Assembly (NCBI GenBank): GCA_001791715.1 | Contig: MGFD01000030.1 | Location: 9,246-41,609 of the forward strand | Reading direction: 5' to 3' | Source: Candidatus Uhrbacteria bacterium RIFOXYB2_FULL_45_11 | GTDB lineage: Bacteria > Patescibacteriota > Patescibacteriia > UBA9934 > GWF2-40-263 | DNA length: 32,364 nucleotides | In this document: in pieces, positions 9,424 through 28,482 of the stretch | How positions within the stretch are numbered: position 1 is the first letter of the stretch | Layout: the number at the start of each line of letters is the position of its first letter | Notes under the pieces: generated by a model | What the model was told of the DNA's origin: nothing | Seen by the model: the letters and a program-made list of their open reading frames with translations, nothing else | Database searches by the model: none | Position numbers and translations under genes: made by a program

Positions 9424-9428
9424 TTTTT

Positions 9429-9506
9429 GTGTCATTCCGACCGACCAAAGGGAGCGGAGGAATCTCGCGTGTACGAGAGATCCCTCGGCTGCGCTCGGGA
9501 TGACAA
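9429..9506 (+). repeat. P1: GTCAT...ATGAC palindromic element directly upstream of the next start codon
   Basis: It shares tgtcat..., atctcgcgtKtacgWgagatccctcggctgcgct and cgggatgaca with 27163-27272. Outer arms gtcattccga / ctcgggatgac. Confidence 0.8.
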
Positions 9507-9514
9507 AGTAACGT

Positions 9515-10687: not shown

Positions 10688-10764
10688 GCGCTCGTAGCTC
10701 AGCTGGATAGAGCATCAGCTTGCGGAGCTGAGGGTCGTAGGTTCAAATCCTGCCGGGCGCACCA
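10688..10764 (+). tRNA. tRNA-Arg (anticodon GCG), CCA encoded
   Basis: GCGCTCG TA GCTC AGCTGGATA GAGC A TCAGC TTGCGGA GCTGA GGGTC GTAGG TTCAAAT CCTGC CGGGCGC A CCA. A20, C35 and G36 fit Arg identity. Confidence 0.85.
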
Positions 10765-10772
10765 TAACAATT

Positions 10773-11102
10773 ATGGCTTGGGTATATATATTAAAAAGCG
10801 ATCTTGATGGTCGTTTTTATGTTGGAAGTACGACGGATATTGAGCGTAGAATTATTCAGCATGAACGAAATCAAACACCATCAACATATCGAATGCAGGC
10901 GCATAAACTGGTTTTCTCTCAAGAATATTCAACGCTTCGTGAAGCTCGAGAAATTGAGAGGCGACTTAAAAAACTGAAACGAAAAGATTATTTACAAAAG
11001 ATTATAAATGAGGGTTTGATTCGAATGCGACCTGGCGAGAGCCCCGACGCGCCGAATGATAAACTGTCGGCGGTCGGGGTCCCGACAATCGACAGTATTT
11101 AA
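10773..11102 (+). CDS. small GIY-YIG nuclease-domain protein
   Basis: MAWVYILKSDLDGRFYVGSTTDIERRIIQHE... The ATG lies only 8 nt after the tRNA-Arg CCA. The stop codon sits in the loop of a hairpin (arms at 11081-11094 and 11105-11119). Confidence 0.8.
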   Translation: MAWVYILKSDLDGRFYVGSTTDIERRIIQHERNQTPSTYRMQAHKLVFSQEYSTLREAREIERRLKKLKRKDYLQKIINEGLIRMRPGESPDAPNDKLSAVGVPTIDSI

Positions 11103-11120
11103 CGTGTCGATTCGTCGGGA

Positions 11121-11157
11121 CTGAGGGTCGTAGGTTCAAATCCTGCTGGGCGCACCA
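11121..11157 (+). repeat. duplicated 3' half of tRNA-Arg (direct repeat of 10728-10764)
   Basis: ctgagggtcgtaggttcaaatcctgcYgggcgcacca. 36 of 37 positions are identical to the 3' part of the intact tRNA. Confidence 0.9.
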
Positions 11158-17110: not shown

Positions 17111-18505
17111 TTAGCAGTGTGCGGGAAACGGACAATTTGGATAACTGCATCGACAATAGGTGTCTGCTTTACTTTTTAGCTCAAAGTGCCAGATTTCTTC
17201 TGCGTATCTTACAAAGCCGGCTTGTGTCATGATTTGCGACAAGAGTTGCGCACCATCTTTGTATTTTTGGTTTTGTTGATTGGTGGTGTTAAAGGATGGA
17301 TCTGTAAGAGCCGTACTTCCTTTTTTCAACATGATGTCGATTGCAATACCGCTTCCGTGATTGGATCCACCTGGATAGGCGATTGCTGTTCCGATGCCGG
17401 CGATCTTTTTTTCATCTCCAGTTGCAATGACATCGCAAACCATTTCAATTTGTCGCTTGAGTGGACGATAGGCTGAAATAAGATGAATGGTATAAGCGCT
17501 ATCCATGGACTGTGCAATTTCTCCTGCTTTTTTTAACGCATCTTGCACTTCTTTTGTCACTTGTCCTTTTGGTCCGCTTCCACCTTCATTTACAAAACCG
17601 GGTGCATTTGGTGCTTTTGAAACAAGATTCGGATCGATTGTTTTTGGATTGCTTGATGGCCATGTGTTTTTATCCGTCGCACAAAGTGTTTTACATGCTT
17701 CGGGGTTGCCGCAAACACGTATAGAGCTTGCACTTATTCCACTTGAAGCCATTTGTTCGTCCGACACAACATCTCCTTTGTGTTCTGGAACTTCGACCGT
17801 TTGTACATTTTGAAGTTCAATCGTTTTCATGAGGGTGAGTTGTGGATTGGATGTATACAAAATAAGATAAACCCCAAGAAGCAGGACAAGCCCTGTGAGG
17901 GCGTTTGTGATGCGTGTTTTTCCTTTAGAAACATCCCCGCCACTTGCGGCCATCACATATTGCAATCCTCCAACCATCACCATGACGATTGCGATGGTGA
18001 TGGAGGCGAAAATGAGGAATTTATAGACAGCCGATAGGTAATCAGCGAGGAAGGATGACTTTACAGATGTGGTCGTTGCGATGGCTTTTGAAAAGGAGAG
18101 ACCTGGAATGGGAACGTTGAGGATTGGGGTCGTGGTGGCAGAAGGAGTTTTTGAAGCGGAGGTGTCTGAGCTTGAATCGGTTTTTGATGCAAGAAATGCA
18201 TTATGTTTTTTTTGACAGGAGGATGCAAGAATTTCACCTTCCGTACCATCTGCAAATTCACTTGATGCGAAACTTTTTCCGACGTCTTTTACACAAACTT
18301 CTTTACAACTGTTTGTAGATTGTTGTGAGACAGAAAGAGAAACCGCGCGACAATCTGTGTCTTTTGTTGTGCACACGCATGTTCCGTCTGCAAACGCAAA
18401 CGAGGATGGAAGTGAAAAACCCATCAAGACAAAAAAGAAGATGAGATGTTTTGTGAAACGAAAAATAGAAGCAAGATTATTTTTGTGCAGCAAGTTCGTC
18501 TGCAA
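17111..18505 (-). CDS. exported protein: the same Cys-rich and T4SS-pilin-like module fused to a VanY/M15B-type D-Ala-D-Ala carboxypeptidase domain
   Basis: DGTCVCTT..DC; TPILNVPIPGLSFS; IVMVMVGGLQYVMAA; NPQLTLMKTIELQNVQTVE. C-terminus has SAYRPLKRQ, GGSNHGSGIAIDI and EEIWHFE. The start is uncertain (TTG 18505 or 18493) and overlaps the dsbA-like stop. Confidence 0.75.
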   Translation of the reverse strand: MQTNLLHKNNLASIFRFTKHLIFFFVLMGFSLPSSFAFADGTCVCTTKDTDCRAVSLSVSQQSTNSCKEVCVKDVGKSFASSEFADGTEGEILASSCQKKHNAFLASKTDSSSDTSASKTPSATTTPILNVPIPGLSFSKAIATTTSVKSSFLADYLSAVYKFLIFASITIAIVMVMVGGLQYVMAASGGDVSKGKTRITNALTGLVLLLGVYLILYTSNPQLTLMKTIELQNVQTVEVPEHKGDVVSDEQMASSGISASSIRVCGNPEACKTLCATDKNTWPSSNPKTIDPNLVSKAPNAPGFVNEGGSGPKGQVTKEVQDALKKAGEIAQSMDSAYTIHLISAYRPLKRQIEMVCDVIATGDEKKIAGIGTAIAYPGGSNHGSGIAIDIMLKKGSTALTDPSFNTTNQQNQKYKDGAQLLSQIMTQAGFVRYAEEIWHFELKSKADTYCRCSYPNCPFPAHC

Positions 18506-19133
18506 TCGCTTTTGTTAAATCATTCGCAGAAGGTACGCCCACAATGGATGTGCTGTTGATAAAAAGCGTTGGGGTTGCGAGGATTCCCAAATTCAGAGCC
18601 TCCTGAAGATTTTTTTGCACAATGGGTAATGTATCTTTTGAAGAAAGACATTTTGAGAACGTTGTTTCATTTAATCCAAGTTCTGTGCCAATTTGTGTAA
18701 ATTGTGTTTCGGATAAGTATGTTTGTCGATCAAACAAGGCAGATGCATATTCCCAAAATTTTCCTTGGCGCGCGGCACAGTGTGCGGCAACGGATGCGCT
18801 TGTTGCGTTTGGGTGTGCGGAATCGTTTGGCATGTCTTTCCAAACAAAACGTACATCATTTGGAAACGTCATGAGAGCGACATCGATAATCGGGTTGAGT
18901 TGTTTACAGGCCGCACACTCAAAATCGGAATAGACAACAAGAGTGACTTTTGCCTTTGGAGCTCCGCGTATCGGATCAACAAACGTGACGCTTGGGGTTT
19001 TTAGTGTGGCAGAATTTGTGTTCGTTATTTTTGGTTTTGGAAGCGGAATGGGTTGTGTGCGAATGAAAAAAAACACAAAAACCATGACGGTTAAAAAGCC
19101 AATCACGAGATATGCAAGGAGACGATCGCGCAT
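18477..19133 (-). CDS. DsbA-family thiol:disulfide oxidoreductase, membrane-anchored
   Basis: From ATG 19133: MRDRLLAYLVIGFLTVMVFVFFF (TM segment), FECAACKQ (CxxC) and a thioredoxin-fold remainder. The upstream 27 codons in the ORF track read through element H2. Confidence 0.8.
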   Translation of the reverse strand: MRDRLLAYLVIGFLTVMVFVFFFIRTQPIPLPKPKITNTNSATLKTPSVTFVDPIRGAPKAKVTLVVYSDFECAACKQLNPIIDVALMTFPNDVRFVWKDMPNDSAHPNATSASVAAHCAARQGKFWEYASALFDRQTYLSETQFTQIGTELGLNETTFSKCLSSKDTLPIVQKNLQEALNLGILATPTLFINSTSIVGVPSANDLTKAIADELAAQK

Positions 19134-19255
19134 AGGAATGTTTGAGGTACAGATTACAGATAAGACATACAGATATACAGATGGGAAAAAAGCAGACGTG
19201 CTCTCCGCCTTCATTTGTATATCTGTATGCCGCCATTTGTAATCTGTACCTCAAA
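19134..19255 (-). repeat. intercistronic element H2: TACAGAT-type heptamer arrays forming a long inverted repeat, abutting the dsbA-like ATG
   Basis: Arms at 19141-19184 and 19212-19255. An outer 18-bp and an inner 13-bp perfect helix are separated by an internal loop. Junction on the mRNA strand: CATTCCT-ATG. Confidence 0.8.
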
Positions 19256-19258
19256 TGT

Positions 19259-20506
19259 TTACTTCAACTTAATAAGCTTAAGCTGTCCGGAAAAGGCGTC
19301 TGTGTAATATAAGGAGGAACCGTCTGCGCTTACGGAAAGATTTGACATGGTTGTGTCTCTTTCTGGAATGGCGACAACTTCGTTGCGACCGTTTGTGAGA
19401 TTGAGTTTATAAAGCGTGTCCGGACGGTTTTCATAAAGGGTTCTTTGTAATCCGGCATTGCTTGGAAGGTTTTGCGGTACGGCACAGTAGACAATTGTTT
19501 CTGAACTCCATGTACATTTATCAACCCATGTATTGATGCCAAGGCTGTGTCGATTTTCTCCCATACTTGCCGATGTTCCGTTCACAAGCCACAAGAGTGG
19601 CTTGCCTTGTGAATAATCGCCATAAACGGAATAGAGAATCGTTTTTCCGCTCGGGGACCAGGAAGGGGAAAAACCAAATCCCTCTACCACAAGTCCTTTG
19701 AAATTTTCTTGATTTTTTCCAACCGGATAAATCACCTTTGTATCAAATCCAGATGTGCTGTTGTTTCCGACAATGGATGACGTGTCGGCAAAGGCGATCA
19801 CTTGATCGTTTGGAGACCAGCTGACATCTACCTTGTCCGCATTTTCTCCGAGGGCCTGAACGGAAGTGACGTTTGAACCGTTGTCGTTTGAAAGTACGAG
19901 CCAGCGATTGTTTGGATCGAGCGCAAGGCTTTTTGCGATCAAGTTATCTGATGACGGAGAAAATTCTACGTCTTCCCAGTGTTTTGGAAGCGTGACTTGT
20001 GATTGTGTTTGAAAATTGTAAACGATTTTTGAATCATCCGGAAAAACCATGACTGCTTTTTCTGCATCGCGATTCCATTCAACACTTTGAACGTTTGGAA
20101 ATGTTTGATTTGAAAGTTTTACGATATTTCCATCTTTATCGATGGTATAAAAAAATCCATCATCTTCATTATAAAAATTGATTTTGTTTCCGTCTTTGCT
20201 CAGTGTTGTATTTTGAACCGGGGCTGATGTGAGCGTGATGGTTTTTGTGATTCCTCCATCAGCAATACTTGCAGCCTCTGGAAGCGTACCGTCATTTGTT
20301 GTACTTAATCCGTTTCCTGATCCAGGAGTTCCGTCAAGAGAAGGGGTAAGAGAACCTGTTGGGGTCTCTGTTGTTGAGACGGGTTCGCCGTTAGACGTTG
20401 TGCTTGGACTTTCCGTAAAAAAGACAATATACATGGCAAGACCAATCACAATGACGGACCCAATGAACCCAATGATGAGTAAGATGCGTTTTGGACGTTC
20501 TTGCAT
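19259..20506 (-). CDS. TolB-like PD40 beta-propeller repeat protein with an N-terminal TM anchor
   Basis: WSPNDQVIAF, WSPSGKTILY and FSPSSDNLIA repeats; an N-terminal hydrophobic helix. Confidence 0.7.
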   Translation of the reverse strand: MQERPKRILLIIGFIGSVIVIGLAMYIVFFTESPSTTSNGEPVSTTETPTGSLTPSLDGTPGSGNGLSTTNDGTLPEAASIADGGITKTITLTSAPVQNTTLSKDGNKINFYNEDDGFFYTIDKDGNIVKLSNQTFPNVQSVEWNRDAEKAVMVFPDDSKIVYNFQTQSQVTLPKHWEDVEFSPSSDNLIAKSLALDPNNRWLVLSNDNGSNVTSVQALGENADKVDVSWSPNDQVIAFADTSSIVGNNSTSGFDTKVIYPVGKNQENFKGLVVEGFGFSPSWSPSGKTILYSVYGDYSQGKPLLWLVNGTSASMGENRHSLGINTWVDKCTWSSETIVYCAVPQNLPSNAGLQRTLYENRPDTLYKLNLTNGRNEVVAIPERDTTMSNLSVSADGSSLYYTDAFSGQLKLIKLK

Positions 20507-20565
20507 ATGTGTAAGGGCGGGTCTTGTGCCCGTCCTGTTTCGTTATAAGGAAAAAACGTGAAGGA

Positions 20566-21471
20566 TCAAAATAATTTGCTGATCCCGAAGCCAACAAGAA
20601 GCGCTGGAGAAGCCATGAGAAGAAGCATCAAAACTTGAACGGCAAACAGGATAACAACAATGGTAATGACAATGAGATCGGCCATGATGACCATTCCTTG
20701 GAGGATGATTCCATTTTTATCAATGGGCATTGGGATCGGATCCCAAGAGAGTCTGCCAATGACAGGATCTTTTCCTTTTTTGAGCCATGTTCCATACACC
20801 ATTTCTACGTTGAGCCAACCTAGGCTGAGCAGGTGAATAAAAATGGTGACAACAAGACCAGCTCCTCCTGTTCCTAAATCAAGGGCCGTTGAAATAAAAT
20901 TTGCTCCTGCATTTGCGGCTTTTGGAACCATTTTTTTGGCTGCTTGTTTGGCAGCATCTTGTGCGGCTCTTGTTGCATCGGCTTGTTGTGCGCGCGCATT
21001 GTCATTTTGTGGAAGATCCGCCGCATCTATGAGTGCGCCTTTAATGCGCACAAGCTGCATGAACGACTGAAAAGAAACTCGTCGTTGCTCTTCTTGTTCT
21101 TCTTCCTCTTGATCCTCGTCCTCATTTTCTTGCGCGCGTGCCGCCTGTGCGGGTTGTCTGAGTGGATTTTGTGCTTGTAATTGATTCGTTCGTAATGTGG
21201 ATTGCCTTTGTAGGGGAGACTGCATGGGTGCTCTTGGGGTTTGCGATGATCCTGTGCGCATGATTTGATCGATGTTTGATTCACGATTCATGCCAGGAAT
21301 ACGATTTTGAGCGAAGACACTTTTACGTTCCGCAATACTGCGTGTCTCTTGCGAGGTTGTACTTCCTGCAGACTTAATCATTTGCCCACCAGCTTTGGCG
21401 ACACCTTGTGTGAGTTTTGCGGCGCCCTGTCCCATTTTGACAGCGCCTTGTGCGACAGCTTGTAAGGCCAT
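20566..21471 (-). CDS. hypothetical low-complexity protein (Gln/Ala-rich, acidic stretch) with C-terminal TM helices
   Basis: 301 aa. The start lies 2 nt after the clpC stop. Contains ENEDEDQEEEEQEEQ and a hydrophobic C-terminal third. Confidence 0.55.
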   Translation of the reverse strand: MALQAVAQGAVKMGQGAAKLTQGVAKAGGQMIKSAGSTTSQETRSIAERKSVFAQNRIPGMNRESNIDQIMRTGSSQTPRAPMQSPLQRQSTLRTNQLQAQNPLRQPAQAARAQENEDEDQEEEEQEEQRRVSFQSFMQLVRIKGALIDAADLPQNDNARAQQADATRAAQDAAKQAAKKMVPKAANAGANFISTALDLGTGGAGLVVTIFIHLLSLGWLNVEMVYGTWLKKGKDPVIGRLSWDPIPMPIDKNGIILQGMVIMADLIVITIVVILFAVQVLMLLLMASPALLVGFGISKLF

Positions 21472-21473
21472 GT

Positions 21474-23951
21474 TTATTTTGATTTACGAATCGCGAGTTG
21501 TTTTTTCTCGATCGTAAGGGTGAATTTTTTGTTTTTTTCTTGTTTCAGCAGTCGTTCTGCGAGAATGGATTCCACGTGTGTCTGGATGAGTTGTCGGACA
21601 GAACGCGCGCCGGATTTTGGATCGAGTTTTTCAATCAAGTGGCGCGTGACAACATCCGGAATGGAAAGATGCACACCTTGTTCCATCATGCGGGTGGAGA
21701 ATTCATCTAATTGTTTGCGACAGATTTCGGACAGCACTTCATTCGACAATGGATTGAAGACACAGGTGTGATCAATACGATTCAACAGTTCTGGGCGGAA
21801 ACGTTCTTTGAGTTCTGTCTCGATGTCGCTCGACAAACGCTTCGAAGTCTCAACATCTCCTCCCGAAAAACCAATGCCGCCAGATTCGAATCGTTCAAGT
21901 CCGACGTTCGATGTGAGAATCACAATCGTGTTTCTAAAGTTTACCATTTTTCCGCTTGCGTCACATAGTTCTCCTTCTTCTAAAATTTGCAAAAGCAAAT
22001 TTTGCACATCACGGTGTGCTTTTTCAATCTCATCAAATAAAACGACGGCGTACGGTTTTTGTCGAACGCGATCCGTCAGATTCGCTTGTTCTTTGTAGCC
22101 GATGTATCCCGCCGGCGCACCGATCAACTTTGACATGGTGAAGCCTTCCGAATATTCCGACATGTCGAGGCGGATGAGGTGTTTGGATGTGTGGAAGAAT
22201 TGTTGAGCGATTCCGCGAGCAAGTTCTGTTTTTCCAACACCGGATGGGCCGAGGAATAAGAACGATGCAAGGGGACGCGCCGGATGCGCAACGCCCGTCT
22301 TTGCGCGCTTAAGCGCGTTTGCAACACGAGCAACAACCTCGGTTTGTCCAAGAACATGAGAAGCAAGTTTTGTTTCAATGTCCGCAAAGCTGGATTGATC
22401 TTTTGCGAGCAGATCATTGAGTGGAATGCGCAGCATGCGTGAGATTACGCGTGCGACATCTTCGTGATCAATCACGAGTCCGCTTGTTTCTTCTGTGGCG
22501 AAGGTGTGTGCTTTCAGTTCGCTCTGAAGGAGTTCTTCTGTTGCTTTGAGGTGCACTGCGTCCAAAAAACGTTCTTCAATCACCGCTTGTCGTTTGTCGT
22601 TCTTTAAAAGTTCGATTTGTTTTTCGATTGCTTTACGCTTTTCCTGTGGGCGCAGTTCCGTTGCGTGAATGCGTGCGGATGCGGCGGCTTCATCTAAAAG
22701 ATCAATCGCTTTGTCTGGGAGTCGGCGATCTGTGAGATATCGAGTTGAGAGTTTTACTGCATGTTCAATGGCGGCAGGTGCGATGCGTACTCCGTGAAAC
22801 GATTCGTAATGCGGCGCGATACCTTGAAGAATTTCGATGGCTGCTTCAACGGTTGGTTCTTCGACGGTGACAGTTTGAAAACGTCGTTCAAGTGCGCTGT
22901 CGGATTCAATATGTTTTTTATATTCCGCCTGCGTGGTTGCGCCAATACAATGAATGTCACCGCGTGCGAGGGCGGGTTTTAAAATGTTTGCGGCGTCCAT
23001 GGATCCGGAGGCTGCACCTGCGCCGACGATGGTGTGTAATTCATCGATAAATAAAATAACATCATCGGATTTACTTGCTTCGTCGATGAGTTGTCGCAAG
23101 CGTCCTTCAAATTCACCGCGATACATGGTTCCGGCGACGAGGAGCGCGAGGTCAAGTGCGAATACACGTTTGTTTTGGAGAAGGGGAGGAACCGTTCCTT
23201 CAAAAATACTTTTTGCAAGACCTTCAACAACGGCAGTCTTTCCAACACCCGGTTCGCCGACTAACAATGGATTATTTTTTGTACGGCGACACAAGATTTC
23301 CATCACGCGTTCAATCTCGGCTTCGCGCCCAATCACCGGATCGATCTTCTTTTGCATTTCGGGAGACGTAAGCTCTCTGGAAAAATAGGAGAGTGCTTGG
23401 AATTTTTCTGGTGGTTTTTCTTCTGGTGTTGCGGTTGCGATTTCTTGAAGCAGTCCGAGTTCGTCGGGTTTCATGACTTCTGTCATTTCTGGAAACTTGG
23501 AAGTATTTTTAAGAACAAGAGAGAGCTGTTCACGCAAATATTTTAAATCGATGTTTTGATCTTTCAGAAACGTCAAAATAGACGGAAGTTCAATCTGCGC
23601 GAGTCCAGAGAGCAAGTGTTCTGTGCCAATGTAGCGGTGGCCGTAAATGTTTGCGGTGAGAACGGCTTTTTCAACTGCGCGTTTTGCGTCATCGGATAAA
23701 TGAAGAATCATTCCGTCTGCGGTTGCAGGGAGTGTTTCTGTGACACGAATACTTCCGGCGATTTTTTTAAAATCCGCTTGTTGCATTCCTACCTTTTTTA
23801 AAATCTCTGCAGCGATACATCCTTTTTGCGTGCCAAGCGCCCAAAGCAAATGTTCCGGCAAAATGACCTGTTCATCTGTTTCAACCGCAAAACACAGCGC
23901 TCGCGTGAGCACTGTTTTCAAGTTCGAGGAAAATTTGTCGATAATGTCCAT
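21474..23951 (-). CDS. clpC: Clp ATPase, ClpC-type (two AAA+ modules, Clp_N repeat, short middle domain)
   Basis: GEPGVGKTAV and GPSGVGKTEL Walker A motifs. 825 aa, ClpC-like rather than ClpB-like in length. Confidence 0.85.
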   Translation of the reverse strand: MDIIDKFSSNLKTVLTRALCFAVETDEQVILPEHLLWALGTQKGCIAAEILKKVGMQQADFKKIAGSIRVTETLPATADGMILHLSDDAKRAVEKAVLTANIYGHRYIGTEHLLSGLAQIELPSILTFLKDQNIDLKYLREQLSLVLKNTSKFPEMTEVMKPDELGLLQEIATATPEEKPPEKFQALSYFSRELTSPEMQKKIDPVIGREAEIERVMEILCRRTKNNPLLVGEPGVGKTAVVEGLAKSIFEGTVPPLLQNKRVFALDLALLVAGTMYRGEFEGRLRQLIDEASKSDDVILFIDELHTIVGAGAASGSMDAANILKPALARGDIHCIGATTQAEYKKHIESDSALERRFQTVTVEEPTVEAAIEILQGIAPHYESFHGVRIAPAAIEHAVKLSTRYLTDRRLPDKAIDLLDEAAASARIHATELRPQEKRKAIEKQIELLKNDKRQAVIEERFLDAVHLKATEELLQSELKAHTFATEETSGLVIDHEDVARVISRMLRIPLNDLLAKDQSSFADIETKLASHVLGQTEVVARVANALKRAKTGVAHPARPLASFLFLGPSGVGKTELARGIAQQFFHTSKHLIRLDMSEYSEGFTMSKLIGAPAGYIGYKEQANLTDRVRQKPYAVVLFDEIEKAHRDVQNLLLQILEEGELCDASGKMVNFRNTIVILTSNVGLERFESGGIGFSGGDVETSKRLSSDIETELKERFRPELLNRIDHTCVFNPLSNEVLSEICRKQLDEFSTRMMEQGVHLSIPDVVTRHLIEKLDPKSGARSVRQLIQTHVESILAERLLKQEKNKKFTLTIEKKQLAIRKSK

Positions 23952-23967
23952 AAAGGTGGAAATATTG

Positions 23968-24070
23968 GTAGATACGGATTACAGATGAATACAGATAGGG
24001 ATGACGTATCTGAAAAACGTTTTTCGGAACCGAATATCTCCATCTGTATTCATCTGTAATCCGTATCTAC
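23968..24070 (-). repeat. intercistronic element H3: perfect 29-bp inverted repeat between htpX and clpC
   Basis: gtagatacggattacagatgaatacagat (23968-23996) pairs with its exact complement at 24042-24070. The 45-nt spacer holds the 14-nt palindrome gaaaaacgtttttc (24012-24025). Confidence 0.9.
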
Positions 24071-24076
24071 ACACGT

Positions 24077-24973
24077 TTACAAACCAGCTTTCTTTAATCT
24101 CGCGATACGTTCTTCGATTGGTGGATGAGTGCTGAACATCTGTTCAAACTTTTTTGTGACGTGTGGGTCGAATGGATTTGCGAGGAAGAGGTGGGCTGTT
24201 GCGTGGTTTGCTTTTGACATGGGTTGGTCTTGTACGCTGATTTTTTCGAGTGCGCGAATGAGTCCATCTGGATAACGTGTGAGCAAACATCCGGATGCGT
24301 CTGCGAGATATTCGCGTTGGCGTGAAACCGCGAGTTTGATAAGTTGGGCAAAAATAGGGGAGAGAATCGCAAGCACGATTCCAACGATCAGGATGATTCC
24401 CGCACTACTGTTGTTGTCATTGTCTCGAGAGCCGCGGCCAAAGAAAAACGATCGTGTCATCATGTCAGATAAAAGCAAGACGACTCCGACAAGAACAACC
24501 ACAATGGTCATGACGCGAATATCGTAATTTCCAATGTGTGAGAGTTCATGCGCAAGAACACCTTCCAATTCTTGTCGATCGAGCGCTTGAAGGAGTCCGG
24601 TTGTGACGGCGACCGACGCGTGTTTTGGATCTCGGCCTGTTGCAAAGGCGTTCATGGCAGAGTCTTGGATCACGTAAATTTTTGGGGTTGGGAGTCCGGC
24701 GGTAATCGCGAGATTCTCGACGAGTCGAAACAGTTCTGGGTTATCTTGTTTTTCGATCGGTTTTGCACCAGACGCGGCAAGCGCAACAGAATCACCTTGA
24801 AAATATCCAACAAGCGTCATGACGGTGGAAATAATCACGGCAAGAAAAATGCCAGAAAAGGCATCACCCATCCAAAGACCAAATGCATAGCCGAGCAAAA
24901 TAATCACGACCGAGAAGAGTGAGATCAGAAACCAGGTTTTGTATTTGTTCGCAGAGATTTGGTCGTAGAGCAT
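24077..24973 (-). CDS. htpX: zinc metalloprotease HtpX
   Basis: VLAHELSHIGN (HExxH), four TM segments and C-terminal STHPPIEERIARL. Confidence 0.9.
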   Translation of the reverse strand: MLYDQISANKYKTWFLISLFSVVIILLGYAFGLWMGDAFSGIFLAVIISTVMTLVGYFQGDSVALAASGAKPIEKQDNPELFRLVENLAITAGLPTPKIYVIQDSAMNAFATGRDPKHASVAVTTGLLQALDRQELEGVLAHELSHIGNYDIRVMTIVVVLVGVVLLLSDMMTRSFFFGRGSRDNDNNSSAGIILIVGIVLAILSPIFAQLIKLAVSRQREYLADASGCLLTRYPDGLIRALEKISVQDQPMSKANHATAHLFLANPFDPHVTKKFEQMFSTHPPIEERIARLKKAGL

Positions 24974-25081
24974 AGGGGGAAGTAGAAAGTAGAGAGTAGA
25001 AAGTAGAGAGGAGATAGAAACGTTTTTTAAAATAGCTGCACCAACTAAAACCTTTCTACTTTCTACTTTTCCCTTTCTACT
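24974..25081 (-). repeat. intercistronic element H4: GTAGARA heptamer arrays in inverted orientation, filling the lemA-htpX spacer
   Basis: cat|AGGGGGA|AGTAGAA|AGTAGAG|AGTAGAA|AGTAGAG|AGG. The 31-nt arms at 24981-25011 and 25051-25081 pair at 26 of 31 positions. The spacer contains GAAACGTTTTTT. Confidence 0.85.
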
Positions 25082-25084
25082 TTT

Positions 25085-25636
25085 TTAAAACTTTACTTCT
25101 GGAACCACTTTTTCTGCTTCGTCCATGTCAAAAAATTCTTTTGCGGTAAAGGCAAATGTTCCGGCGATCATGTTGACCGGGAAGGATTGTAAACGTGTGT
25201 TATATTCACGAACGTTTCCGTTGTAAAAGCGACGTGAAGCTTGGATTTTGTCTTCCGCGTCGCGGAGTTCGTGTTGGAGTTGCAAAAAGTTTTGTGAGGC
25301 TTGAAGAGCTGGGTAGCTTTCTGAAACCGCAAACAAAGACTTGAGAGTGCTTGTCAGTACGCCTTCAGCTTGTGCATGTTCTGGAAGCGTGTGCGCGCCC
25401 ATGGCCGCGGAGCGAGCTTTTGTCACGTTTTCAAAGACGCTTGATTCGTGTGAAGCGTATCCTTTTACGGCATTCACCAAGTTTGGAATCAGATCATAAC
25501 GGCGCTTCATTTGAACTTCAATGTCAGACCACGCTTCGTCTACACGGTTTCTGAGCGTGATAAGACCGTTATATGATAAGATGAGCCAGAGTCCGACGAG
25601 GGCGAGAACAATGATAACGATCCAAAGGGTAGACAT
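25085..25636 (-). CDS. lemA: LemA family protein
   Basis: N-terminal TM, then YNGLITLRNRVDEAWSDIEVQMKRRYDLIPNLV..., typical of LemA. Confidence 0.9.
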   Translation of the reverse strand: MSTLWIVIIVLALVGLWLILSYNGLITLRNRVDEAWSDIEVQMKRRYDLIPNLVNAVKGYASHESSVFENVTKARSAAMGAHTLPEHAQAEGVLTSTLKSLFAVSESYPALQASQNFLQLQHELRDAEDKIQASRRFYNGNVREYNTRLQSFPVNMIAGTFAFTAKEFFDMDEAEKVVPEVKF

Positions 25637-25743
25637 AGGGGAATGTTGGAAAGGTTTGAAATGTCGGAAAGGTCGGAAAGGAAACGTTGTAAAAACGTTT
25701 TGGATTACCTTTCAAACATTTCAGACCTTTCCGACCTTTCAGA
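25637..25743 (-). repeat. leader element H5: four plus four inverted 9-nt units (TCGGAAAGG family), abutting the lemA ATG
   Basis: AGGGGAATG|TTGGAAAGG|TTTGAAATG|TCGGAAAGG|TCGGAAAGG, then a 26-nt spacer (AAACGTT-GTAAA-AACGTTT), then CCTTTCAAA|CATTTCAGA|CCTTTCCGA|CCTTTCAGA. Confidence 0.85.
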
Positions 25744-25760
25744 CTAAGTATTACGTTTAA

Positions 25761-25789
25761 ATTCTACGAAATTTACAAGCTTTCGTCAA
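25761..25789 (-). promoter_or_regulatory. sigma70-like promoter for lemA (TTGACG-17 nt-TAGAAT)
   Basis: Minus strand: TTGACG (25789-25784), a 17-nt spacer, TAGAAT (25766-25761). It places H5 inside the transcribed leader. Confidence 0.5.
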
Positions 25790-25794
25790 AAAAT

Positions 25795-27138
25795 ATGGAG
25801 ATACCAAAACACATTTTTCGTGCCTATGATATTCGCGGACTTCTCGCTGAAGTGACGCCTGATATTGCTCGCGTAGTCGGGATGGCGCTTGTTTCAAAAA
25901 CAGGGGCAAAAACCGTGATTGTCGGGCGCGATATGCGTGCAACGAGTCCAGAGCTTGAGCAAGCGGCGATCGAAGGAATTACGTCGATGGGCGCAAACGT
26001 CATCGCAATCGGACTTTGCAGTACATCGATGTTCAATTTTGCGGTTTCAAGCCAAGAACATATTGACGCTGGCATCATGATCACCGCCTCACACAACCCA
26101 CCAGAATTTAATGGAATGAAAATGGCACTCGCAAGCGGATTGCCGATTTCTGGTCTTGAGATTCTTGAAGAGGTGGAGCGTTCCCCCTCTCCTTTCGAAG
26201 GAGAGGGCAGGGGAGAGGTGTCCCATCAAGATATTCTTGGTGCTTACATCGACAAATGTCTCGCTGTCGAGAACTTACCCGATCTCTCTGGAACAAAACT
26301 CGTTATCGACTACGGAAACGGCATGGGAGCAATGTCGGTTCGTGAACTTTGTAAGCGTCTGAAGATCGAAGTGGTCGAACTTTATCCAGAACCAGATGCA
26401 CGTTTTCCAAACCATGAAGCGAATCCGGCAAAAGAAGAAACACTCGCGGATGTGAAAGCGGCTGTTGTTCGAGAAGGCGCAGATTTCGGAATCGCCCTCG
26501 ATGGCGATGCAGATCGTGTAGGGTTTATCGACAATGAAGGAGTTTCGTTGCGCGGTGATCTTACGCTCGCGCTTCTCGCGAAAGAGACGCTCTCGAGAAA
26601 ACCTGGATCAAAAGTTGTTGTCGCACCAAATCAAAGTTGGACCACGTTTGATTCGATCACAGAAAACGGTGGCGTTCCTCTTGAATGTCGTATTGGTCGC
26701 AAATTTGTCGTCGAGGCGGTGCAAAAACAAGGTGCGGTTCTTGGTGGGGAGGTTTCGAGCCATTTCTTCTTTGAAGAATTCCATGGGCTTGAAGCCGTCG
26801 ATCATGCGATCGTTCGCATCTTGTCGATCTGGAAACAATCCGGACAATCATTCGCCGATCTCGTGCGTCCATATCGCGCATATACAAATAGTGGCGAGGT
26901 GAATATTGAAGTGCACAATAAAGAACAGGTTCTGAGCAAGCTCGAACAGTATGCGGGGACAGCATCGAAAGTGAATAAGCTCGATGGAATTCGCTGTGAA
27001 TTTGATCGTGACTGGTGGTTTATTGTGCGACCATCGAATACGGAGCCATTACTTCGATTGATTGTGGAAGCAAAGACGCCGGAACTGATGGTACAGAAAC
27101 GCGACGAATTGGTTGCTTTGATTCAGACGAACGGGTAA
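25795..27138 (+). CDS. phosphomannomutase/phosphoglucomutase (alpha-D-phosphohexomutase)
   Basis: GIMITASHNPPEFNGMKM active-site loop, DGDADR metal loop, GGEVSSH sugar loop. 447 aa. Confidence 0.85.
   Translation: MEIPKHIFRAYDIRGLLAEVTPDIARVVGMALVSKTGAKTVIVGRDMRATSPELEQAAIEGITSMGANVIAIGLCSTSMFNFAVSSQEHIDAGIMITASHNPPEFNGMKMALASGLPISGLEILEEVERSPSPFEGEGRGEVSHQDILGAYIDKCLAVENLPDLSGTKLVIDYGNGMGAMSVRELCKRLKIEVVELYPEPDARFPNHEANPAKEETLADVKAAVVREGADFGIALDGDADRVGFIDNEGVSLRGDLTLALLAKETLSRKPGSKVVVAPNQSWTTFDSITENGGVPLECRIGRKFVVEAVQKQGAVLGGEVSSHFFFEEFHGLEAVDHAIVRILSIWKQSGQSFADLVRPYRAYTNSGEVNIEVHNKEQVLSKLEQYAGTASKVNKLDGIRCEFDRDWWFIVRPSNTEPLLRLIVEAKTPELMVQKRDELVALIQTNG
26183..26220 (+). repeat. in-frame palindromic mini-element D within the phosphohexomutase gene
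   Basis: CCCCCTCTCCTT-TCG-AAGGAGAGGG-C-AGGGGAGAGGTG, translated as SPSPFEGEGRGEV. Same architecture as the recG copies. Confidence 0.8.
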
Positions 27139-27162
27139 TCTTTTATTGTTCTTGTTTATATT

Positions 27163-27272
27163 TGTCATCTTGAGCGACCGTTTTATGTCTAGTCGAAAGA
27201 TCTCGCGTTTACGTGAGATCCCTCGGCTGCGCTAAGAGGCTGCTTCGCAGTGCGCTCCGCTCGGGATGACAC
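27163..27272 (+). repeat. P2: GTCAT...ATGAC palindromic element directly upstream of tyrS
   Basis: It shares both ends and a 33-nt core with P1 and carries an extra 26-nt internal segment (aagaggctgcttcgcagtgcgctccg). It ends 8 nt before the tyrS ATG. Confidence 0.8.
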
Positions 27273-27279
27273 AAAATTT

Positions 27280-28482
27280 ATGTCCACAAATACCGATAAA
27301 GATGCAATCAATCACTTGCTTACGCGCGGGGTAGAAAATATCTACCCGTCTTTCGATTATCTTGAGGCGCGCTTGAATGAGGGGAAACAACTCACATTGT
27401 ATCTTGGAATCGATCCAACCGGTCCAGATTTACATTTGGGTCACGCGATTCCACTTCGCAAAATGGCAGAATTCCAAAAACTTGGTCACAAGTTGATTTT
27501 GCTTATTGGGGATTTCACGGCGATGATTGGCGATCCAACAGATAAATCCGCAACGCGTGTGCAGCAAACGCGCGAGCAAGTTCTTGCGAATGCCGCGAAG
27601 TATAAAGAACAAGCGAGCAAAATCATTTCGTTTGAAGGCGAGAATGCGGCTGAACTCAAATACAACAGCGAATGGCTCGCGAAACTCGGATTCACAGATG
27701 TTGTTGAACTCGCGTCGAACTTTACGGTTCAACAAATGCTTGAACGTGATATGTTCGAAAAGCGTATTGCAGAAGGAAAGCCCGTTCATCTTCATGAGTT
27801 CCTCTATCCATTGATGCAAGCGTACGATTCGGTTGCGATGGATGTCGATGGTGAAATTGGTGGAAACGATCAAACATTCAACATGCTTGCGGGTCGCGAT
27901 TTGATGAAATCGTTGAAAGGAAAAGAAAAATTCGTCATCACTTCGAAATTGCTTACGGATCCAACTGGAAAGAAAATGGGAAAGAGTGAAGGGAACATGA
28001 TCACGCTCTCAGACACACCAGACGATGTGTTCGGCAAAGTCATGAGTTGGACCGATGGAATGATTATTCCTGGATTCGAGATTCTGACGGATCTTCCAAA
28101 CGGAGAAATTAAAGAGATGAAAATCGCGATGGGAGACGGTGTGAATCCACGCGACTTCAAGGTGAAGCTCGCGGCAGAAGTAGTTGCGACGTTTTTCGAC
28201 AGAGCAACGGGTGACGCAGCCGTTGATCGATTCAACAAATTATTCCAAGAACACGCCGTACCGGAAGATGTTCCAGAAGTAAAACTCGAAGGTGCGATGA
28301 GTATCGTTGACGCACTCGTTGCAACCAAGCTTGCGCAATCAAAAGGCGACGCGCGTCGATTAATCGACGGCGGGGGAGTAAAGGTGAACGAGGAAGTCGT
28401 GACCTCATATGATTTTGTTGTGGATCCTGCAATGAGTCCGTTGTTGCAAAAGGGAAAAAGACATTTTGCGCGTATTGTGTAA
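27280..28482 (+). CDS. tyrS: tyrosine--tRNA ligase
   Basis: PTGPDLHLGH (HIGH), KMGKS (KMSKS) and a C-terminal S4-like domain. ATG 27280 was preferred; the ORF-track start at 27250 lies in P2. Confidence 0.95.
   Translation: MSTNTDKDAINHLLTRGVENIYPSFDYLEARLNEGKQLTLYLGIDPTGPDLHLGHAIPLRKMAEFQKLGHKLILLIGDFTAMIGDPTDKSATRVQQTREQVLANAAKYKEQASKIISFEGENAAELKYNSEWLAKLGFTDVVELASNFTVQQMLERDMFEKRIAEGKPVHLHEFLYPLMQAYDSVAMDVDGEIGGNDQTFNMLAGRDLMKSLKGKEKFVITSKLLTDPTGKKMGKSEGNMITLSDTPDDVFGKVMSWTDGMIIPGFEILTDLPNGEIKEMKIAMGDGVNPRDFKVKLAAEVVATFFDRATGDAAVDRFNKLFQEHAVPEDVPEVKLEGAMSIVDALVATKLAQSKGDARRLIDGGGVKVNEEVVTSYDFVVDPAMSPLLQKGKRHFARIV

Follow-up and report, generated by a model that had tools for sequence, protein, structure and literature searches.

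Turnover of word-repeat hairpins in the spacers of a Candidatus Uhrbacteria lemA-htpX-clpC operon and their possible post-transcriptional role

Extragenic hairpins such as the repetitive extragenic palindromes (REP), bacterial interspersed mosaic elements (BIME) and REPIN elements of proteobacteria and the Correia elements of Neisseria are often intercistronic and co-transcribed, and vary between strains. REP palindromes and Correia elements stabilise the upstream mRNA, Correia elements are cut by RNase III, and GTAG is a tetranucleotide typical of REPs. RNase III cleaves a hairpin of AUCUUUC heptamers in the 5' untranslated region (5'UTR) of Haemophilus influenzae hmw1A, and the hairpin controls expression (PMC12721329). 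STRR repeats of cyanobacteria and TAACTGA heptamer direct repeats are found before start codons in Beggiatoaceae, Cyanobacteria and Bacteroidetes (PMC4679880), and intervening sequences of 23S rRNA, which are excised by RNase III, have been mentioned for the Candidate Phyla Radiation (CPR) (PMC11270868). Here we describe E1, a long inverted repeat in the spacer between htpX and clpC in a 32,364-nt stretch of DNA (the window, from whose first letter positions are counted) of Candidatus Uhrbacteria RIFOXYB2_FULL_45_11, a CPR (Patescibacteria) genome from aquifer/groundwater metagenomes. The HtpX encoded in the window matches the protein of that bacterium with 100% identity. CPR bacteria are uncultured and have streamlined genomes with few recognisable regulators, and the control of their gene expression is almost unstudied.

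E1 was compared with the same locus from 54 GTDB species genomes and 80 metagenome contigs, and further with 10 contigs encoding an identical HtpX and 10 contigs from relatives with 96-83% identical HtpX; comparison loci are given L numbers below. Hairpins of the E1 type occupy four spacers of one gene cluster in the window, and among relatives such cassettes fall into families whose members have been gained, lost, replaced and copied between spacers, while the pairing of their arms has been maintained. With little more than even confidence, we lean towards reading E1 as a young, species-specific and turnover-prone hairpin cassette whose action, if it has any, would be post-transcriptional, by processing, by segmental stability or by masking of the leader. 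Its closest functional analogues would be the repeat hairpin of hmw1A and those REP or Correia palindromes that are co-transcribed. A single repeat of this kind is ordinary in principle; the behaviour of the family in a CPR stress operon, including leader swaps in near-identical strains, is unexpected, and no description of such cassettes in CPR bacteria surfaced in the literature searched on related questions.

E1 resembles hmw1A in its tandem words, which make up one arm of a long leader hairpin (E1 has two of 10 nt in each arm), and in a predicted continuous double-stranded RNA (dsRNA) of at least about two helical turns. In hmw1A, pyrimidine-rich heptamers of a fast-evolving repeat region pair with a purine/G-rich segment, giving a hairpin longer than 100 nt before the start codon; there the repeat is the 5' arm and its number phase-varies within a strain, whereas E1 has no copy-number variation in 10 contigs. 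Unlike hmw1A, E1 is intercistronic with perfect locus-specific arms, and whole cassettes are exchanged, not only repeat numbers. REP and Correia elements are high-copy with conserved arms, whereas the Uhrbacteria cassettes are low-copy with tandem-word arms that differ between loci. The TAACTGA and STRR repeats share with the cassettes 7-nt tandem words within a few nt of the ATG and few canonical ribosome-binding sites, and a post-transcriptional role has been proposed for them; however, they consist of one conserved word genome-wide in direct repeats, whereas the words in Uhrbacteria are family-specific and usually mirrored by a complementary arm. The rRNA intervening sequences are also sporadic, horizontally exchanged hairpin inserts, tolerated by folding out and removed by RNase III, but they sit in rRNA helices and lack word-repeat arms, whereas the Uhrbacteria cassettes sit in mRNA spacers.

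Anatomy and transcription context of the htpX-clpC hairpin

The gene order glmM (divergent), lemA-htpX-clpC-orf301-PD40-dsbA-vanY and onward is kept across Uhrbacteria, and the cluster from lemA-htpX-clpC to dsbA is co-directional, with genes of proteostasis or envelope stress. All are on the minus strand in the window: lemA (25085..25636, from a domain search) is the first gene in the cluster, htpX (24077..24973, by domain search and homology) encodes an M48 zinc metalloprotease upstream of E1, and downstream of E1 lies a clpC-like gene for a double AAA+ chaperone (21474..23951; Clp_N, AAA, AAA_lid_9, AAA_2 and ClpB_D2-small).

The arms of E1 agree with the perfect 29-bp inverted repeat of the original prediction: GTAGATACGGATTACAGATGAATACAGAT stands at 23968-23996 on the plus strand and at 24042-24070 on the minus strand with 0 mismatches, and 100 dinucleotide-preserving shuffles gave 0 arm matches of 29 bp (0 expected by chance). 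The repeat extends imperfectly to 46-nt arms (23957-24002 / 24036-24081) with 85% complementarity. Because htpX runs from 24973 to 24077 and clpC from 23951 to 21474 on the minus strand, the arms begin 6 nt past the htpX stop and finish 16 nt short of the clpC ATG, as had been stated. On the mRNA strand, the repeat search places the purine-rich 5' arm, GTAGATACGGATTACAGATGAATACAGAT, at 24042..24070 (-) and the 3' arm, ATCTGTATTCATCTGTAATCCGTATCTAC, which is pyrimidine-rich and G-poor by composition and adjoins the clpC leader, at 23968..23996 (-). Each arm is built of two 10-nt words, GATTACAGAT and GAATACAGAT. Words of the GATTACAGAT type occur eight times in the window against 1.85 expected, six of them in E1 or in the element at 19134-19258 described below.

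Between the arms lies the 45-nt spacer at 23997..24041 (-), and the palindrome GAAAAACGTTTTTC (24012-24025), on which the fold places an inner mini-hairpin, is at most half a base off its centre, as previously noted. Folded in the mRNA sense, the htpX-clpC spacer has a minimum free energy of -62.1 kcal/mol against -22.5 +/- 3.2 in shuffles (z = -12.3); the predicted hairpin (23966..24073, -), to which arm complementarity also points, holds 31 uninterrupted pairs and about 45 in total, including the perfect 29-bp duplex, and the centroid structure is identical with the minimum-energy structure. The predicted single-stranded clpC leader, CAATATTTCCACCTTT (23952..23967, -), has no Shine-Dalgarno (SD) sequence; an SD-like purine run is absent from TTTCCACCTTT-ATG, as originally reported, and G makes up 7% of the last 45 nt upstream of the ATG. 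If transcribed, E1 RNA would be a textbook substrate for a double-strand-specific RNase, which upholds on the predicted helix what had been proposed.

A stem-loop after a stop codon recalls an intrinsic terminator, but the 45-bp AT-rich stem with its 45-nt loop region is far beyond terminator length and has no U-tract, as had been pointed out, and terminators with a GC-stem and a T-run are present elsewhere in the window. No terminator-like site was found at E1, where CAAUAUUUCC follows the stem, and we rejected this class.

A scan of 18900-26000 gave one good promoter match, a sigma-70-type promoter of lemA, TTGACG-N17-TAGAAT (25761..25789, -; 10/12 matches), which is kept in relatives as TTGACG…TAnnAT. 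The same scan found no sigma-70-like site on the coding strand in E1 or in the lemA-htpX spacer, and no terminator-like site in the lemA-htpX or htpX-clpC spacers; coding-strand terminator-like matches fell within the htpX and clpC coding sequences and in the loop of the element at 19134-19258. Since the sole good promoter stands before lemA and no intergenic terminator intervenes, E1 would lie in a polycistronic lemA-htpX-clpC mRNA. Manual fits of an extracytoplasmic function (ECF)-type promoter (GGAAT-N18-GTT) or a Bacteroidetes-type promoter to the loop gave inconsistent spacing and were dropped.

Sister hairpins and the loop motif

The build of E1 recurs at three further spacers of the cluster, all on the minus strand. 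E2 (24974..25084) is the lemA-htpX hairpin, with arms of GTAGAAA/GTAGAGA heptamers and a loop containing …TATTTTAAAAAACGTTTCT…, and has an orthologue in L081. E3 (25637..25760), found by fold and repeat search directly downstream of the lemA promoter, is the lemA 5'UTR hairpin in the form called allele A below, with GGTCGGAAA nonamer arms and the loop AAAACGTTTTTACAACGTTT. E4 (19134..19258), the PD40-dsbA hairpin of TACAGAT heptamers, is by alignment and words a diverged paralogue of E1. On the mRNA strand, the common build consists of a purine-rich 5' arm that begins 0-11 nt past the upstream stop, an A/T-rich loop of 30-45 nt and a C/U-rich, G-poor 3' arm of tandem 7-10-nt words (period 7 or 9 in E2, E3 and E4) that ends 4-19 nt before the ATG, usually as …CCCCT/CCTTT-ATG. 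None of the other window intergenic regions of at least 25 nt has this build; they hold GC-stem and T-run terminators, tRNAs or REP-like palindromes. A scan against Rfam 15 at a permissive threshold gave no family at E1, E2 or E3, and at E4 only a spurious plant miRNA match far below the gathering score.

The original prediction had linked E1 by shared words with an element upstream of the dsbA-like gene. The shared words are there, and the two spacers, 4.7 kb apart, are 75% identical overall (z = 11.7 against shuffles), but the element ends at 19258 and not at 19255, with the dsbA-like ATG at 19133. Between E1 and E4, three pairs are changed on both sides, two changes lead to G-U pairs and none of the substituted pairs is broken. 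E4 also bears on the gene call of the dsbA-like gene (18477-19214), whose called start at 19214 (245 aa) falls inside the hairpin. The ATG at 19133 gives a product of 218 aa that begins with the transmembrane-like MRDRLLAYLVIGFLTVMVFVFFF, and orthologues have 218-230 aa; because of these lengths and this product, the annotated start is probably too far upstream.

The leaders share a composition as well as a structure. In the 45 nt before the ATG, C averages 43% (genome, 25%) and G 5% (genome, 21%) in a set of 16 hairpin and 10 hairpin-less spacers from the window and L001-L154; the C-rich, G-poor composition of the hairpin-less spacers equals that of the hairpin spacers, and the leaders often finish CCCCT-ATG. 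By composition they look rut-like or like a standby site, G-poor and unstructured, rather than like a Shine-Dalgarno leader. The other window genes have no consistent SD either. Such a tract raises the idea that ribosomes use the C-rich, G-poor 3' arm as a standby site, or Rho uses it as a (rut-like) loading site, and that the purine arm masks it conditionally. Heat, a ribosome that terminates on the upstream gene and opens the stem base, or processing would unmask it, with thermosensing, translational coupling or Rho-dependent polarity as the outcome (the role of Rho being putative). The leader composition, the word periods of 7-10 nt, stems that start 2-11 nt past the upstream stop and end 4-19 nt before the ATG, and the proteostasis and envelope-stress genes all suit this idea. 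However, at -30 to -62 kcal/mol the helices greatly exceed known RNA thermometers in stability, no Rfam thermometer matches, and we hold conditional unmasking to be decidedly unlikely.

The palindromic core of the E1 loop had been put forward as a protein-binding site. AACGTT occurs 17 times in the window against about 14 expected, which is not unusual and does not bear that proposal out; on the same count, AACGTT was rejected as an avoided or enriched restriction-type site. The longer AAACGTTT occurs five times against 1.8 expected, and three of the five copies lie in the loops of E1, E2 and E3; by a rough estimate, three loops of about 40 nt sharing one 8-mer are unlikely by chance. This excess in consecutive hairpins, the AAAAACGC that allele B of the lemA 5'UTR carries at the equivalent place, and the nature of the genes as stress genes would fit a DNA operator, in which the AACGTT/AAACGTTT core at the repeat tip binds a dimeric regulator of lemA, htpX and clpC. 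Against an operator, the motif is lost in the orthologous E2 of L081, which has AAAAAACTTCC in its place while the neighbouring TATTTTAAAAAAC is kept, and in E4, which has GCACGTCTGC in place of the core. The motif is also missing in relatives with the same operon, promoter and 2-8-nt spacers, AACGTT itself is not over-represented across the window, and internal ATGs follow the sites at a distance of 45-65 nt, with no promoter close by. Known stress operators are likewise missing: the controlling inverted repeat of chaperone expression (CIRCE) bound by HrcA, TTAGCACTC-N9-GAGTGCTAA, gave 0 matches in the search, and the CtsR box RGTCAAA-NAN-RGTCAAA gave five matches against 5.0 expected, 0 of them in spacers. 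We therefore consider an operator very improbable. The core, an A-run/CG/T-run mini-palindrome at the hairpin tip, may instead be a feature of shared ancestry or of nucleation in the cassettes.

Gain, loss and exchange among relatives

The nine contigs of the same species that span E1 completely carry it unchanged; a tenth ends inside the loop and is identical as far as it goes. Outside the same-species contigs, it is absent from every genome of the comparison set. The close relatives all keep the operon without E1, and the original idea of a singular site-specific element is not supported. In these relatives the htpX-clpC gap takes very different forms: it measures 3 nt in L004, 26 nt (C-rich) in L003 and 35 nt in L154, all with 83% identical HtpX, 43 nt in L149 (88%), 53 nt in L150 (85%), 60 nt with C-rich GCCTCTC words in L001 (93%) and 61 nt in L147 (90%). 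The gap is filled by a REP-like palindrome in L148 (88%) and in L145/L146 (96%), and by an unrelated hairpin with a 32-bp perfect stem in L151-L153 (86%), while in more distant Uhrbacteria it is 2-18 nt long or the genes overlap. The lemA-htpX gap and the lemA 5'UTR show turnover of the same kind, and the repeat number of E2 differs between the window and L081. From L146, L148 and L065, the ancestral states appear to be a gap of 6-8 nt and a leader of about 33 nt behind the kept promoter.

An exchange at strain level affects the lemA 5'UTR. The contigs with identical HtpX agree fully in E1 and E2, but their lemA 5'UTR has two unrelated alleles, with allele A in the window, L055, L058 and L060 and allele B in L056, L057, L059 and L061-L064 (25637-25760 in the window against 9221-9337 in L056). 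Across 17347-27400 of the window, L056 differs by two single-nucleotide polymorphisms (SNPs) and by 56 differences within a swapped segment of about 120 nt; both flanking SNPs are on the lemA side, and towards glmM the sequences agree for about 1.6 kb before they first differ. The whole leader was exchanged, because the swapped segment starts directly past the -10 box. Allele B is also found in L145, a 96% relative, and the sister contig L146 has the short ancestral leader; in this pair the junction coincides with a recombination breakpoint, at which glmM is 92% and lemA-htpX 99% identical. A search of the window turned up no silent donor copy of allele B.

Families of cassettes also occur at different spacers in different genomes. 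Family B (GCTTGAGATGCCGAAAAAAACGCATTCAAAAAGCCTCTC…) stands in the lemA 5'UTR of L056 and L145 and at PD40-dsbA in L150 (81% identity, z = 33), and its 3' arm alone is the htpX-clpC spacer of L001. The GAGTGATGGAGTGG family stands upstream of htpX in L147 and L154 and at htpX-clpC in L151 (89% identity, z = 19). The GTAGAAA family of E2 is found at lemA-htpX in the window and in L081, where the orthologous copy (90% identity) has extra 3'-arm words, and at PD40-dsbA in L002. Orientation relative to the genes is clearly kept in family B (132 against 49) and in the E2 family (133 against 67), and moderately in the GAGTG family (63 against 51); E1 and E4 are near-palindromic, which makes an orientation call impossible. 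Between family members, the arms vary more than the loops.

Mobility of this kind recalls a classical miniature inverted-repeat transposable element (MITE) or a REP/REPIN element moved in trans by a transposase such as RAYT, and the inverted-repeat build of about 110-150 bp, the presence/absence polymorphism, the occurrence of one family at different spacers in different genomes and the GTAG in the arms of E1 and E2 speak for it. The tag stands in the E1 arm, which begins GTAGATAC, and in the GTAGAAA words of E2; E3, E4 and the other families have no GTAG/CGTC tag. Many identical scattered copies, which the original prediction took as the sign of a plain MITE, were not found: the 32 kb contain a single diverged paralogue of E1 (E4) but no second identical copy, and related loci totalling about 1.6 Mb contain no copy at all. 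E1 nevertheless belongs to a population of mobile or replaceable cassettes, which the original prediction had not foreseen. Moreover, the arms, which are the conserved part of MITEs, are the most variable part here, plasmid and phage collections gave 0 matches, and pattern scans of IMG/VR gave single matches consistent with chance, or none. No link to a transposase was seen, nor, by inspection at E1 without a dedicated search, a flanking direct repeat or target duplication. A MITE or REP origin is thus unlikely in our view.

Several other classes were tried and rejected. An inverton does not agree with the same loop orientation in 10/10 contigs and with a 45-bp spacer, very short for inversion. 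For an integron attC site or a diversity-generating retroelement (DGR), the genes are core and syntenic, and AAC/GTT is central, not terminal. Small open reading frames (ORFs) on the opposite strand at the hairpins were inconsistent between elements.

The main rival to a post-transcriptional role is that the cassettes are tolerated passengers, selfish or mutational inserts with no regulatory role, whose self-complementarity loops them out, keeps stop and start codons adjacent and does little harm; they would have arisen by word slippage, by fold-back or template-switch copying, or by an unknown mobilisation. The presence/absence and wholesale replacement in close relatives, the filling of the same spacers by REP-like palindromes, the lack of any sequence conservation, an mRNA-sense helix that is not optimised and cassette ends flush with stop and start codons are all what such passengers would leave. 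They do not readily explain that the word-repeat hairpins of the window are restricted to the spacers of this gene cluster, that orientation relative to the genes is kept (clearly in two families and moderately in a third) and that compensatory changes preserve pairing; that spacers without hairpins also have the C-rich, G-poor stretch before the ATG suggests that the leader is under selection. We regard the passenger explanation as a real possibility, though a doubtful one. If it holds, E1 is an ordinary palindromic repeat of unusual build.

Hairpins of other types share these spacers. REP-like nested palindromes of the form GTGTCATYCCGA…GGAATCTCGCG…CGAGAGATCC…TCGGGATGACA lie in the window at 9424-9514 and 27139-27249, and also in L001 (9894-10000), L002 (4905-5214 and 5767-5874), L148 (5572-5693), L150 (6130-6337) and L145 (7898-7930); in the relatives they occupy lemA, htpX and clpC spacers that hold word-repeat hairpins in the window. 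A small GC-rich hairpin, GGGCGGGTCTTGTGCCCGTCC, followed by …TACA(C/A)AT-ATG, stands in the orf301-PD40 spacer of the window (20514-20536). Similar copies stand in the lemA 5'UTR of L151 (6414-6434) and L149 (3316-3336) and at htpX-clpC in L002 (6790-6812), and this hairpin is another type common to different spacers. Words of the ATTCGTA/TACGAAT type recur in spacers of distant Patescibacteria (L149 4902-4944, L010 773-898, L050 9722-9803, L052 6720-6833 and L023 9912-9975), a recurrence that hints at a word vocabulary shared among Patescibacteria spacers. Over all Patescibacteria loci, the stretches up to 100 nt from htpX make up 11.5% of non-coding space and hold about 40% of non-coding hairpins; all loci were chosen via htpX and the ORF mask was crude, and we do not rely on this enrichment.

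Possible action of the cassette and points that weigh against it

Considering the above results, we propose the following model. Slippage of words, together with arm-to-arm copying or selection for pairing, would drive the evolution of the cassettes, which are gained, lost, replaced and copied between spacers at the timescale of species and even of strains while the arm pairing stays. E1 would be co-transcribed and fold co-transcriptionally into a duplex of about 45 bp, which would bring the htpX stop near the clpC start and leave only about 14-16 nt exposed of a G-poor clpC leader that is otherwise unstructured. With more than two turns of perfect dsRNA, the duplex would be long enough for cleavage by RNase III, and rnc is among the ribonuclease genes kept in at least 90% of CPR genomes (PMC12641178). 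In this model E1 probably serves as a target of RNase III and masks the leader of clpC. The outcome would be that clpC is uncoupled from htpX, or tuned relative to it, post-transcriptionally through processing, segmental mRNA stability and leader access, in a manner that is not sequence-specific.

Several points weigh against this model. E1 is invariant among the same-species contigs, and no variation in repeat number backs a tuning role for it; because it is absent from all relatives, it is dispensable for the operon. Its co-transcription, folding in vivo and cleavage are all inferred, and the loci were sampled around the lemA-htpX-clpC operon and not genome-wide. Of the 17 Uhrbacteria hairpins, 14 have an antisense strand whose fold is more stable than that of the mRNA strand, with a difference of up to 18 kcal/mol; the mismatches are A·C in the mRNA and correspond to G·U on the other strand. 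Selection that acted solely on the stability of the sense helix would give the opposite strand pattern and is disfavoured. The asymmetry is consistent with separate pressures that favour C in the 3' arm and A in the 5' arm, and is also consistent with upkeep of pairing at the DNA level by arm-to-arm copying. Finally, a purely structural model does not explain the presence of AAACGTTT in three neighbouring loops. Our degrees of confidence in the readings given here overlap and do not sum to one.

If the hairpins are processed or mask leaders, they would offer cheap, evolvable tuning of operon stoichiometry and would serve as markers of microdiversity as well. In either case the gaps of a conserved stress-protease operon are hot spots of fast-evolving structured elements at the RNA level. 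A broader proposal, which we advance only tentatively and consider rather unlikely, is that Uhrbacteria, and perhaps CPR bacteria widely, carry an undescribed class of orientation-specific cassettes, kept in structure and hypervariable in sequence, which move or are copied from spacer to spacer and are swapped between strains as whole 5'UTR alleles, giving evolvable post-transcriptional control of proteostasis via RNase III and a masked ribosome- or Rho-loading tract. If true, this would be a system like contingency loci in organisms with very few transcription factors.

On the practical side, these hairpins break assemblies and mislead gene callers, as at the dsbA start. Contigs end inside hairpins or REP-like palindromes at the end of L064 and at L145 7898-7930, L146 4567-4599 and L147 1-134, and such elements appear to break short-read CPR assemblies. 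A hairpin in L009 (10871-10965) carries AAGGAGGTGATCC in its 5' arm, the exact complement of the canonical 16S rRNA 3' end. Elsewhere in the window, a tRNA-Arg(gcg) gene (10688-10764) is followed by an ORF of 109 aa for a GIY-YIG nuclease (10773-11102; PF01541, E = 2.7e-14) and then by a second tRNA-Arg 3' half, …GGGTCGTAGGTTCAAATCCTGCTGGGCGCACCA, at about 11118-11155. By its arrangement, the segment 10688-11155 looks like a small GIY-YIG element integrated at a tRNA 3' end.

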